From contig OX597839.1 of NCBI GenBank assembly GCA_951406725.2, positions 36,394,001 through 36,458,000 of the forward strand: a stretch of DNA of 64,000 nucleotides. The letters run 5' to 3'. A model generated the notes under the pieces. That model ran no database searches and was not told where the DNA came from. It saw nothing but the letters and a program-made list of their open reading frames with translations. Positions 5,435 to 36,680 of this stretch are shown piece by piece (position 1 is the stretch's first letter; every line of letters starts with the position of its first letter). Made by a program: the position numbers and the translations under genes. This stretch comes from Octopus vulgaris. Lineage: Eukaryota.

Positions 5435-5980
5435 TACAAAATTTAACCCTTTAGCATTTAAACCGGCCATATCCGGCCAAAAGTATTCTACCTATTCTAT
5501 GTTCAAATTGGCCAGATCTGGTCTCTCACACCAACCCTACAATATCATCTTAAAAATTAACAGCTACCTCATCAAAATCTCATAGCTACAAGATAATGCA
5601 TGATTAGTTCAAGGCAATGTGAATGAAAAAGCATTCATTTTGGCAGAATAATGCGAACACTAAAGGGTTAAAGGACTGGCCACTAAAAGTGGATGGTCAA
5701 CATGCTAGAAATAGACGTCAAAATTGCTATTTTCCACAAAGAAAGTGTTCTTAAATAAAAAAACTCAGCACAAACCAAAGCATTAAAAATAAGCAAGACA
5801 AATGAAAATATACGAAATAAAAGCAATTTTGACGTCTATTTCTAGCATGTTGACCGTCCACTTTTAGTGGTCAGTCCTTTAAATTTTGTATGTAAAAATA
5901 TTTTAATCTTTGGATTTTTTTAATATGCTAAGCCACTGGTTTTAATTGATTAATATCAATTTCTACCCTTATTAAATTTT
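5435..5980. mobile_element. (TA)n-embedded inverted-repeat element, interrupted by a piggyBac-like MITE
   Basis: Arms 5435-5728 (minus the MITE) and 5822-5890; homologous to 36495-36680 (-). Confidence 0.65.
5447..5667. mobile_element. piggyBac-like MITE
   Basis: TTAA|CCCTTTAG...CTAAAGGG|TTAA. Confidence 0.85.
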
Positions 5981-7482
5981 ATATATATATATATATGGAT
6001 ATATATATATATATATATATGGATACCAGGACCTTTGGAGATATGCTGTGATTGAGCAGACTTGGCAACTAAAGTGAGATCGCAGGCATGGCCAATGCCA
6101 GTGTTGCATGTCCAGCCCTTTTAGAAGTACCCTTGGTGTATGTCGGTCGATATGATATGCTTGAGAAGACCTTTTGAGTCAAGTAAAACCAAAATTGTAG
6201 CTATGGTCAGTGCCCCCAGACTAGCTTCCATGCCGGTGGCACGTAAAATGCACCATCTGAACGTGGTCGATGTCAGTGTCCCCTGAATGGCTCCCGTGCT
6301 GGTGGCACGTAAAAAGCACTATCTGAACGTGGTCAATGCCAGGTTTACCTGACTGGGTCCTGTGCTGGTGGCATATAAAAAGCTCCCTGACTAGCTCCCA
6401 TGATGCTGGTGGCACGTAAAAGCACTATCTGAATGTGATCGATCCCAGGGCCGCCTGACTGACTGACTCCTGTGCCAGTGGCACATAATTGCACCCTCTA
6501 CACTCTCTGAGTGGTTGGCGTTAGGAAGGGCATCCAGCTGTAGAAACACTGCCAGATTAGATTGGAGCCTGGGGCAGCCATCTGGTTTGCCAGTCCTCTG
6601 TCAAACCGTCAAACCCATGCCAGCAAGGAAAATGGACGTTAAACAATGATGATATATATATATACATATATATATACATATATATATATATATATATATA
6701 GTGTTGGTGTGTGGGACATGTATATATATATATATGTATATATATATATCATCATTGTTTAACGTCCATTTTCCTTGGTAAAAGTGGTCGTGTTAAGAAA
6801 AAGACTCTACACACCCGTTCTAATATTTACACAACATATATATATATATATATATATTGTGTTGGTGTGTGGGACATGTATATATATATATATATATATG
6901 TTGTGTAAATATTAGAACGGGTGTGTAGAGTCTTTGGCAAACTGTTTTCTTAACACGACCACTTTTACCATCACATAACATCAGTGTTTGGTGAACACAC
7001 ACACAAGGATGCAATAGTCACTCAATCTGCTGAAAATAGCGACCAAAGCACTCGCAAGTCACATGCTTAAAATGAAAGCTATTGTATCAATCAATACATT
7101 TCCTGATAGGGGAATGACGAAATCATTTGAAATGCAACACCTTTCTATCAGCTTTGATCTGAGATCACATGACAGTGTCACAAGGTGTTTACTTTCGAGA
7201 TATTGAAGGAAATACCTTGCAGGGGCATATTAACTGCTAAAAATAGCAGCTTAATTTTAATTTTACACATATCACACGCTACTGTCTTAAATTAGAAAAT
7301 GTCACCAAGATATATATATATATATATATATATATATAAAGGTTTGACTTTACGTGCACAGATACACACATACAGGTGTCGGCTGTCCAACTTAGCAGTT
7401 ATTGAGGTCTATGAAAGATAATCTTCTTCCTACAGCCTCAACTGTTGGTAATATATATCACCAGTGTTGTTGTTTTAATGTC

Positions 7483-7622
7483 TATTATATATATAATTAT
7501 CTTTTTTTAATAATTTTGATATATATTTAAAATAATATAAATTAATTAATCTTATGTATTGGCTTGAGTTTTTCATTGTATGATTTGCCTAATAGTGGTT
7601 TTATCTCTAATTTAATATAATA
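7483..7622 (+). mobile_element. Fragment of the 35.8-36.3 kb element family
   Basis: Near-identical to 36200-36330 and ends at the same point before (TA)n. Confidence 0.75.
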
Positions 7623-7933
7623 TATATATATATATATATATATATACACACACACACACACACACACATAGGGGACAACTGATGAAGGGATTGTTCTTTA
7701 TGTTGCCTTTCTCATTTCTCTATTTGTTTCTTTCGTTGTCTGAAAAAAAGACGGTGGAAAAGGTTTGACATTGGCCATGCGCAGATACACACATACAGGT
7801 GTCGGCTGTCCAACTTAGCAATTATTGAGGTCTGTGAAACATAATCTTCTTCCTACAGCCTCAACTGTTGGTAATATATATCACCGGTGTTGTTGTTTTA
7901 ATGTCCACTCTTCCATTCTTGCGTGTGTCATAT

Positions 7934-8165
7934 GTATTTCTTTACTGCCCACAAGGGGCTAAACACAGAGGGGACAAACAAGGACAGACAAAGGGATTAA
8001 GTCGATTACATCGACCCCAGTGCGTAACTGGTACTTTATATATCGACCCCGAAAGGATGAAAGGCAAAGTCGACCTCGGCGGAATTTGAACTCAGAACGT
8101 AACGGCGGATGAAATACGGCTACACATTTCGCCCGGCGTGCTAACGTTTCTGCCAGCTCACCGCG
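7934..8165 (-). mobile_element. SINE family B
   Basis: Inverted copy; further copies at about 2727, 24331, 42830 and 43826. Confidence 0.85.
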
Positions 8166-8721
8166 TGGGTCATATGGACTTGTTGAAGCCATTTCCTTTG
8201 CAACTTTGCTACCAAGCAGGGGGTGGGTCAAACTTAGCTCTAAATTAAAAAGAGTGAAAGAATGAACAAGCACACACACGACAGGCTTCTTCCAGTTTCC
8301 GTCTTCAATTTCCATTCACAAGGCTTTGGTTAGAGCAGGGTTACAGTAGAAGACACTTGCCCAGGTGCCCTGTAGTAGGTTTTTGCCCCTGAAATCATAC
8401 CTGCACCATCGCACCCCTATTTTGTAAAAAGCCCTGGTGCTGGTGCCATGTCAAAACACCCAGTACACCCTATAAAGAGGGTGGTGTTAGGAAGGGCATC
8501 CACCTGTAGAAGCCTTGGCAAAATAGAAAATTGAAGCCTGGTGCAGCTTTCTGGCTTGCCAGCTCTTGTTAAGCCATTCAACCCATGCCAGCATGGAAAA
8601 TAGACATTAAATGATGATGATATTACTGAAACTATGCAAGGACAACCCAATTTCGCTGCAGATCACAGATCAGAAATTAAGAAGGAATCTATAGTCCAGT
8701 TTTTCTTGTCTAAATATTCAT

Positions 8722-9107
8722 AAGCAGGAGTGGCTGTGTGGTAAGTAGCTTGCTAACCAACCACATGGTTCCGGGTTCAGTCCCACTGCGTAGCATCTTG
8801 GGCAAGTGTCTTCTGCTATAGCCCCGGGCCAACCAATGCCTTGTGAGTGGATTTGGTAGACGGAAACTGAAAGAAGCCTGTCGTATATATGTATATATAT
8901 GTATGTGTTTGTACCCCTATCATTGTTTGACAACCGATGCTGGTGTGTTTACGTCCCCGTCACTTAGCGGTTCGGCAAAAATGAGACCGATAGAATAAGT
9001 ACTGGGCTTACAAAGAATAAGTCCCGGGGTCGATTTGCTCGACTAAAGGCGGTGCTCCAGCATGGCCGCAGTCAAATGACTGAAACATGTAAAAGAGTAA
9101 AGAGTAA
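8722..9107 (+). mobile_element. tRNA-derived SINE family A (about 400 bp)
   Basis: Pol III A/B-box-like head (tggctgtgtggtaag, gggttcagtccc), internal (TA/TG)n, (GAGTAAA)n tail; many copies in the window. Confidence 0.9.
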
Positions 9108-9385
9108 GCAGGGTGTGATTTGAGAGAGGTTTCTTTCATTTGCTGTTTCTAGCAGTCCAAGGAATAAAGCAACGTGTCAGTTTTCTACCAAAACATGTTT
9201 GTGTTTGTTGAGACCAATGTTTATATTTGGTTTATTGCGTATTGATTCTGTGTCCTACTTCTTTGAGATTTGTTTATCTTTCTATGTTAGCCAAGGGTTA
9301 GACTTGATCTGGCTGACCTATTGATCAAAGATGCCCCAGCTGTCACTGTATTGCCCCTTTATACAAAACGGCTGTATATCCAAGT

Positions 9386-9587
9386 CAGTGCTTTTCAAAC
9401 TTTTTTGCTGAAGTGGAACCCCAAGGAAACATTCCACTGGCTCGGGGAACCCCCGTGCAATAATTTAATCGTCTTATGCACACATCTCTGCACAGGAGAA
9501 TTAAAAATTACTGCCGATTTTAGCATTTTTGTAACTTCTTGCGGAACCCCTGGACTGTACTGGTGGAACCCTGGTTGAAAACCACTG
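9386..9587. mobile_element. hAT MITE
   Basis: CAGTG...CACTG ends; perfect 8-bp TSD atccaagt. Confidence 0.88.
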
Positions 9588-35526: not shown

Positions 35527-35645
35527 GTATGCTGAAACGAAAGACCTTAGTATTGGATCTTGATGAAACTTTAATCCACTCCCACCATGATGGAGTTTTA
35601 CGTCAAACAGTGAAACCAGGGACTCCACCAGACTTTGTATTAAAG
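35527..35645 (+). CDS. CTDNEP1: CTDNEP1 exon with catalytic DxDxT motif (119 nt)
   Basis: ttgcag/gtaagt boundaries, phase compatible with the previous exon; (S)[39 protein letters not shown]. Confidence 0.97.
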
Positions 35646-36005
35646 GTAAGTGGCATTGAGTAAAGGGAATTGCTTGTCGTTTTTACCTGCACACCACACC
35701 ACACACCCATACACTTTTAATTGGCTCTTGAGTCACGTACTGCTTATTAAAAATTATATATATGAATATATATATATATATATATATATAATAATAAAAT
35801 ATTAGGGAATAAATCCAAACTTACAGGGAAAAAATCAGATTTAGGATTGAATCCAATTTTATAGTAAAATATTATATTATATTAAATTAGAGATAAAACC
35901 ACTATTAGGCAAATCATACAATGAAAAACTTAAGCCTATACATAAGATTAATTAATTTATATTATTTAAATATATATCAAAATTATTAAAAAAGATAATT
36001 AATAT

Positions 36006-36075
36006 AACACTACGATCGTTTCATGGCTGTTCAATTCTTAAAATTTTCGAGTTACAGTCATTCTTCAGGTGGTTT
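36006..36075 (-). ncRNA. Inverted copy of the hammerhead motif
   Basis: Reverse complement of 36128-36197, in the other arm of the palindrome. Confidence 0.78.
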
Positions 36076-36127
36076 ACATATTTAACTTGGCGAGGTCTAA
36101 TCAATGAACTCGCCAAGTTAAATATGT

Positions 36128-36197
36128 AAACCACCTGAAGAATGACTGTAACTCGAAAATTTTAAGAATTGAACAGCCATGAAACGATCGTAGTGTT
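36128..36197 (+). ncRNA. Minimal type I hammerhead ribozyme motif
   Basis: cac-CTGAAGA-atgactgt...acagccat-GAAA-cgatcg-TA-gtg: stem I, core, stem II, palindromic stem III, GUA cleavage triplet at 36190-36192. Confidence 0.8.
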
Positions 36198-36370
36198 ATA
36201 TTAATTATCTTTTTTAATAATTTTGATATATATTTAAATAATATAAATTAATTAGTCTTATGTATTGGCTTAAGTTTTTCATTGTTTGATTTGCCTAATA
36301 GTGGTTTTATCTCTAATTTAATATAATATATATATATATACACTTTATTTAAAGCAGCAGAAAATTCAAC

Positions 36371-36417
36371 AAAACCTGTTACTCTGAGTTTCACGTTCCC
36401 GTTCGTCGGACAGTTTT
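36371..36417 (-). ncRNA. Second, unrelated minimal hammerhead motif (U4C core variant)
   Basis: Reverse complement aaaactgt-CCGACGA-acg ggaa cgt-GAAA-ctcagag-TA-acag g tttt, followed downstream by AATAAA and (TA)n. Confidence 0.7.
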
Positions 36418-36494
36418 TGCTAGTATTTGAGTACTCTTTTTTCCACCTTGTTTCACATTTATGTGTTTACTCTGGTATATATATATATATATAT

Positions 36495-36680
36495 CTAAAG
36501 TTAAATAATGAGGATAGAAATTAATATTAATTAAATTAATATCAATTTAAACCAGTGGCCTGGCATATTTAAAATAATCCAAAGATTCAGAAAAATTATA
36601 TGACATACAAATAAGAGGAATGACCACTAGGTGGATTCCTAATATGCTAGAGGAAGACCCCATATGGTCTGACCACTAAG
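36495..36680 (-). mobile_element. AT-rich element end homologous to 5822-5980
   Basis: Shared blocks ctagcat, tcca, agtggtc, tgtatgt, tctttgga, aatatgc, gccactggttt; abuts (TA)n. Confidence 0.62.

Follow-up and report, generated by a model that had tools for sequence, protein, structure and literature searches.

A covarying RNA fold shared by hammerhead-bearing tandem repeats of Octopus vulgaris and its possible role in Penelope-type retrotransposition

Relation to known systems

Hammerhead-bearing tandem repeats that lack open reading frames (ORFs) are known in animals as non-LTR (long terminal repeat) retrozymes (Cervera and de la Pena 2020, PMC7229834; Li, Clavereau and Pollet 2026, bioRxiv 10.64898/2026.07.22.740005). 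According to the available parts of these accounts, their units are a few hundred bases long and low in GC, each carries one type I hammerhead motif, and they occupy thousands of dispersed sites and are linked to Penelope terminal repeats. The endonuclease-bearing Penelope-like elements Neptune, Hydra and Naiad are described as leaving a footprint of 5′ truncation, partial tandems, an inverted 5′ copy, an optional tail and (TA)n targets, and Penelope reverse transcriptases (RTs) as the sister group of telomerase RTs (Craig et al. 2021, PMC8557442, as far as available). Here we describe three (TA)n-embedded loci that share a multibranch RNA fold, at 5.7, 30.8 and 36.5 kb of a 64,000-nucleotide stretch of the Octopus vulgaris genome (assembly GCA_951406725.2, contig OX597839.1, positions 36,394,001 to 36,458,000, forward strand), which is referred to as the window throughout.

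The octopus elements resemble the metazoan retrozymes in each of the features listed above. They differ in their shared fold, since the available parts of the two retrozyme papers describe no conserved non-ribozyme domain common to families; conversely, circles and cleavage were shown there, whereas the octopus units are known from sequence alone. Their insertions resemble those of Neptune, Hydra and Naiad, but they contain no ORF and their tail measures 80-100 nucleotides (nt) as compared to the 30-40 nt given for those elements. Naiads are described as lacking canonical hammerheads, unlike the units studied here, and four short motifs of the octopus families were unmatched in the cephalopod Naiad consensus sequences of the same source, where line breaks could hide a match. 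The idea of a selenocysteine insertion sequence (SECIS) and a Naiad origin was rejected, as no motif matched the published cephalopod Naiads and the hammerhead argues against it. Poseidon of Anolis carolinensis (Frangieh et al. 2024, PMC11167929) likewise has two tail-bounding ends downstream of a hammerhead; there, the RT starts internally at these two sites, copying is independent of hammerhead cleavage and uncut RNA is the main substrate. It differs in that the initiation region lies within the ORF and copying begins at an AC-rich stem-loop that shares no homology with the target; the available text of that paper reports no covarying multibranch fold. The element class is known and the conserved domain is the new part, described neither in Rfam nor in the literature searched, which left most subscription papers outside.

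Conservation of the fold

The three loci are 5′-truncated ends of three high-copy repeat families, designated C (5.7 kb), B (30.8 kb) and A (36.5 kb). Searches of the 2.8-Gb assembly that contains the window returned 2582, 2590 and 2340 first-look candidates, respectively, which are not copy numbers, 40 having been scored for each family. The elements at 5.7 and 36.5 kb belong to sister families (46 differences in 165 aligned columns) and the three loci therefore represent only two deep lineages; the original prediction of three divergent elements was right about the shared fold and overstated their independence. Six further families (B2, B3, E, G, H and I) were identified through sequence similarity in neighbouring DNA and then expanded by search.

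The fold consists of an outer stem X, a hairpin H1, a second long-range stem P and a hairpin H2 that is followed, inside P, by a large AT-rich loop. Without structural guidance, RNAalifold recovered X, H1 and P for each lineage from alignments made from sequence only; it further recovered H2 for the B lineage and a terminal stem that explains the 'taYcct' end motif. The stems originally proposed paired in 81% and 96.5% of the cells of two alignments, a level that fell to 30-48% when the partners were slid. Covariation was then evaluated on the majority rows of the six families not used to define the stems, with training family C excluded. Pairing was kept in 25 of 41 distinct changes, and 15 of the 18 double changes were compensatory. 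Under a null in which columns were re-paired while the history of each one was preserved, about 5 double changes kept pairing on average and none of 20,000 trials reached 15; for the long-range stems X and P alone, the same null gave a probability of about 0.011. At the copy level, where changes reflect decay after insertion, 32 of 86 kept pairing. On the hammerhead strand, G-U states were more frequent than A-C states (14 versus 7), a bias indicative of the sense RNA. Conservation across 14 family representatives was highest at paired bases in the helices of the X/P junction, while conserved unpaired positions were restricted to U-runs and the UG after X′.

A covariance model (R1) built exclusively on the A lineage matched the homologous segment of 12 of 17 B-lineage loci, the misses including all three from B3, where H2 is duplicated. 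R1 also yielded six further variants, J with 2718 candidates and K, N, O, Q and R with one to three copies each, in which positions invariant in the training set were re-paired (e.g. X pair 3 and P pairs 4 and 6). Double changes occurred at 24 of 27 pairs in the alignment fitted by the model, an alignment biased towards the structure. In a random sample of the genome (40 stretches of 10 kb), sequence profiles gave hardly any matches, and R1 later revealed G- and J-type copies. In total, at least ten repeat families plus several low-copy variants carry the fold, an inventory that is incomplete because R1 was not run genome-wide.

Some observations weigh against selection on the fold. A naive pairwise test gave 25 changes that kept pairing versus 29 that broke it, but with the A-H pair misaligned it carried little information, and the 3′ halves of the two lineages stayed unaligned by sequence alone in a joint alignment of nine families. 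Breaks persisted at helix ends and in H2 (16 of 41 changes), H2 being paired in 59%, and all families come from one genome. Moreover, a structure-only descriptor produced five matches in 464 kb, one true and four unrelated, and missed two of the window copies. Folding of single sequences yielded z values between -2.1 and -3.3, yet for either strand, and the proposed structure was fully recovered as the minimum-energy one in one of three sense-strand copies; such folding is only mildly informative, and the support for the fold is comparative. On that comparative evidence, selection on the RNA structure is supported: the claim that pairing had been kept despite divergence was borne out by the held-out covariation and by detection across lineages with the covariance model.

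Within the window, the stems proposed as X, H1, P and H2 were all present where they had been placed. The family A copy (36490..36700, minus strand; R1 match 36550-36679, 110 bits) is a 5′-truncated unit end that has lost the hammerhead and whose long 3′ end adjoins (TA)n. Its fold spans 36554..36677, with X at 36672-36677 pairing with X′ at 36554-36559, H1 formed by 36666-36670 and 36655-36659, P at 36641-36650 pairing with P′ at 36560-36569, and H2 formed by 36635-36640 and 36616-36621. The P stem exists as proposed except for one decayed pair, an A-C mismatch in P′ where the family A majority pairs. Two features had escaped the original prediction, a hairpin preceding P′ (36576-36587) and a terminal hairpin (36511..36553) with a short closing stem (RNAalifold columns 157-159 with 195-197; identified by eye in the B lineage), in which the 'taYcct' motif is the 3′ strand.

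The family B locus consists of a long arm on the minus strand (30800..30990; weak R1 match at 30845-30990, E 1.7) and an inverted arm on the plus strand (30993..31076), which has the short 3′ end, located in UA-rich sequence 3′ of H2. The long arm contains X (30983-30988 with 30850-30855), H1 (30975-30979 with 30967-30971), P (30955-30961 with 30856-30862), H2 (30948-30953 with 30932-30937) and a terminal stem placed by eye (30844-30848 with 30824-30828). In the spacer of the B lineage, RNAalifold found an extra covarying stem (alignment A5, columns 111-154), superseding a short hairpin before P′ that had been our first guess. The inverted arm is immediately followed by ~2 kb (31086-33068) composed of poly-T, (AG)n and (AT)n tracts, which may reflect sequence instability or an assembly error.

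The family C locus is also an inverted pair, in which, as in family B, one arm runs to (TA)n and the other stops soon after H2. Its long arm (5816..5979, plus strand; R1 match 5811-5941, 97.7 bits) is truncated before the 5′ strand of X and retains P (5842-5851 with 5922-5931), X′ (5932-5937), the hairpin before P′ (5905-5916), the terminal hairpin (5944-5961) and the end motif (5963-5969). The inverted arm (5667..5800, minus strand) carries the 5′ strands of X (5734-5737) and P (5699-5708) together with H1 and H2, and ends at the short 3′ end. The fold had been assembled here by combining both arms, which is legitimate because intact family C copies hold both X strands; H2 appears by eye to have re-formed in a shifted register in this family. 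The (TA)n target array lies at 5980..6020 at the long end of this locus, and further arrays are found at the long ends of the B and A loci (~30795-30812 and 36478-36495).

Tandem units and copy ends

In longer copies of these families, the sequence does not stop at the apparent end: a linker and a type I hammerhead motif come next, and then another fold, giving tandem units with a period of mostly 434-536 nt and no long ORF (inspected by eye, with some loci translated). The predicted hammerhead cut falls 58-99 nt upstream of stem X. A strict hammerhead pattern was detected in 9/36 copies of B, 12/30 of B3, 8/37 of G, 5/45 of J, 2/36 of C, 1/39 of A and 1/45 of E, and in none of B2 (0/27), H (0/39) or I (0/39); a looser pattern found the motif in H and I, and it was recognized by eye in B2. 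These minorities are explained by truncation, since most copies, the three window copies among them, do not extend 5′ as far as the motif. Few 5′ breaks coincided with the hammerhead cut, namely 3 among 155 copies of B2, B3 and C (G and B yielded no unit in this analysis). With a short ORF-less tandem unit and a type I hammerhead motif in each, the loci fit truncated 3′ ends of non-coding tandem repeats of the non-LTR retrozyme class, as judged from their sequence. No ORF was found between units, where an autonomous Penelope-like element would carry an RT and GIY-YIG ORF between its terminal repeats. Contigs from sequencing runs presumed to be RNA contained joints that go back along the unit, which are compatible with tandem DNA as much as with circles. 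A possible intron, considered because of splice-like sequence at the hammerhead cut and at P′/X′, was rejected after no matching GT-AG joint appeared in the contigs of four runs, although contigs cannot show absence. Family B3 copies, which carry an exact duplication of the H2 hairpin (L017:2770-2995, plus strand), are 98-100% identical genome-wide and were therefore recently active.

The insertions show an inverted 5′ arm, partial tandems, an optional tail and (TA)n targets, a Penelope-type footprint that, like the origin of the loci as retrozyme ends, the original prediction had missed. Of the first 90 loci, 55 carried an inverted arm, 53 of these arms stopping 78-139 nt short of the long end; one further match comprised the terminal hairpin only. 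Copies use two alternative 3′ ends, about 80-100 nt apart, with a bimodal distribution. Specifically, 16 of 69 family A copies ended at the short site, 48 at the long one, none between and 5 earlier; the corresponding figures were 18, 32, 0 and 1 for family C (n = 51) and 44, 92, 0 and 0 for family B (n = 136, sister-family matches included). The ratio of short to long ends is biased, because the loci were retrieved with long-form queries. The short end lies in the big loop 3′ of H2 that P closes, and the long end just beyond the terminal stem. One C-like copy (L365:2644-2802, plus strand) has a (TA)n array inside the element at the short-end site, which suggests that this site is itself a target or is expanding. 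The window also contains, at 35755-36330, a 225-nt inverted repeat (98% perfect) of a different family that is likewise TA-embedded and carries a hammerhead; its short and long ends are separated by ~80 nt, and more copies lie at 7488-7629 and 54464-54568. Elsewhere in the window, a tandem repeat with a 140-bp unit occupies 17346-19086 (12.5 copies, 96% matches).

Possible functions of the fold

The position and conservation of the fold are best explained, and in our judgement probably so, by a binding and initiation element for a Penelope-type RT-endonuclease supplied in trans. A role as a cis-element for RT recognition had been among the original suggestions, and we infer it as well. The units would be transcribed as multimers or circles, and X and P would stack at a three-way junction with H1 to form a protein-binding site. 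The endonuclease would nick (TA)n and the enzyme would begin copying at one of two internal sites, the UA-rich loop 3′ of H2 for the short end or the position just beyond the terminal stem for the long end, and the 80-100 nt between both starts would correspond to the Penelope 'tail'. Synthesis through the hammerhead site could then generate partial tandems, truncations and inversions. Because the distance of the short end from H2 is not fixed, the exact start is probably set by annealing of the UA-rich RNA to the nicked (TA)n. A non-coding parasite would need a borrowed enzyme to bind and copy it, and lineages that broke the fold would go uncopied, which would account for selection on such a parasite.

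Several observations count against a Penelope initiation element. The short end lies mostly 10-25 nt from H2 in six families, but 0-5 nt from it in a minority of B and E copies and 30-35 nt in G and H; it may thus track TA-like sequence rather than being measured by the fold. Both ends are TA-like, as opposed to the start of the anole element. The different hammerhead family at 35755-36330 has two ends without the X/H1/P/H2 layout, although its predicted fold includes one long-range stem. Regarding the partner enzyme, an open 850-aa frame for a Neptune-type Penelope RT-endonuclease was found in a young family (L372:1665-4214, plus strand; G000:C3; 16,328 first-look candidates), whose copies end in (TA)n at two sites about 45 nt apart, and R1 found no match in its own terminal repeat at 30 loci. 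In all six cases read, (TA)n or other sequence lay between the fold copies and nearby Penelope ORF fragments, and neither these fragments nor the Neptune-type terminal repeats provided an autonomous partner bearing the fold. At one locus (L091:6000-7430, plus strand), a decayed Penelope RT-endonuclease of another family adjoins a family B tandem without an intervening TA array, possibly through a template switch or nesting.

In a bolder version, which we put forward tentatively, Penelope RTs would use the fold as a compact module akin to telomerase RNA. By analogy, the X/H1/P junction might recruit the enzyme as CR4/5 does, and the UA-rich loop closed by P might act as an internal template annealing to the nicked (TA)n. 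The CR4/5 three-way junction of telomerase RNA, which engages the RT, also combines two stacked helices with a short hairpin (PMC3950677, as far as available); the resemblance is topological only, with no sequence match and an H1 loop whose sequence is not conserved here.

Among the alternatives, the one that survives best, though we find it rather unlikely, is that the fold was selected for survival or processing of the RNA (circle stability, export, binding of host proteins or dimeric hammerhead folding) and that the ends fall there only because the loops are UA-rich. Structured retrozyme circles are reported to build up in coral, mussel and axolotl (PMC7229834), and the differing short-end offsets between families and the TA-like character of both ends would be expected of such ends. 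However, the sequence upstream of X is just as AT-rich, yet copies end at only two sites, within the fold or directly behind it, and sequence conservation is concentrated at one junction. Selection on a single-stranded cDNA or DNA intermediate, acting in second-strand priming or endonuclease resolution, is improbable. The tail of the D. virilis Penelope is reported to be needed for endonuclease recognition of plasmid DNA (PMC11167929) and the inverted arms mostly use the short end, but the family-fixed G-T pairs of the hammerhead strand would be A-C mismatches on the cDNA strand.

We consider it very doubtful that the fold is itself an undescribed ribozyme, the second in the unit, that creates the short end by self-cleavage, and the earlier suggestion of an unrecognized ribozyme was not sustained. 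A multibranch covarying fold in retroelement RNA might raise that expectation, as might the results with Rfam, which agreed with the earlier failure to match known ribozymes: no match fell on the fold at gathering score or by E-value. The window scan gave only an isolated 5S rRNA (61983-62100, minus strand, 58 bits), and the 138 sub-threshold matches at seven loci included none to a ribozyme family or to telomerase. In contrast, no unpaired core is conserved beyond the U-runs and the UG after X′, a hammerhead motif already stands upstream in the parent units, and the short ends are scattered over tens of nucleotides. An HDV-like (hepatitis delta virus) or other pseudoknot was rejected from sequence reasoning, as X′ follows P′ without a linker and its pairing with the H2 arm would be an alternative fold. 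Least probable of all is the absence of current selection, with pairing inherited from one ancestor or arisen by chance in AT-rich sequence: the few deep lineages, a stem substitution density not much below that of non-stem positions in several pairs and the unrelated descriptor matches speak for it, but the excess of compensatory double changes and the re-pairing of training-invariant positions in the new variants oppose it.

Little is settled about the choice of RNA by Penelope-like RTs or the reason for the tail on their insertions, and recruitment of the mobilising enzyme by animal retrozymes is likewise unshown. In vitro, binding of a Penelope RT has been narrowed to about 150 nt, with no conserved structure in the available part of that report (PMC11167929). 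A covariation-supported structure with two mapped copy ends makes the matter testable by disruption and compensatory rescue. If the telomerase-RNA-like module proved true, it would be the first defined Penelope recognition element, and a radiation of protein-free RNA parasites would have kept a minimal handle for the sister group of telomerase.

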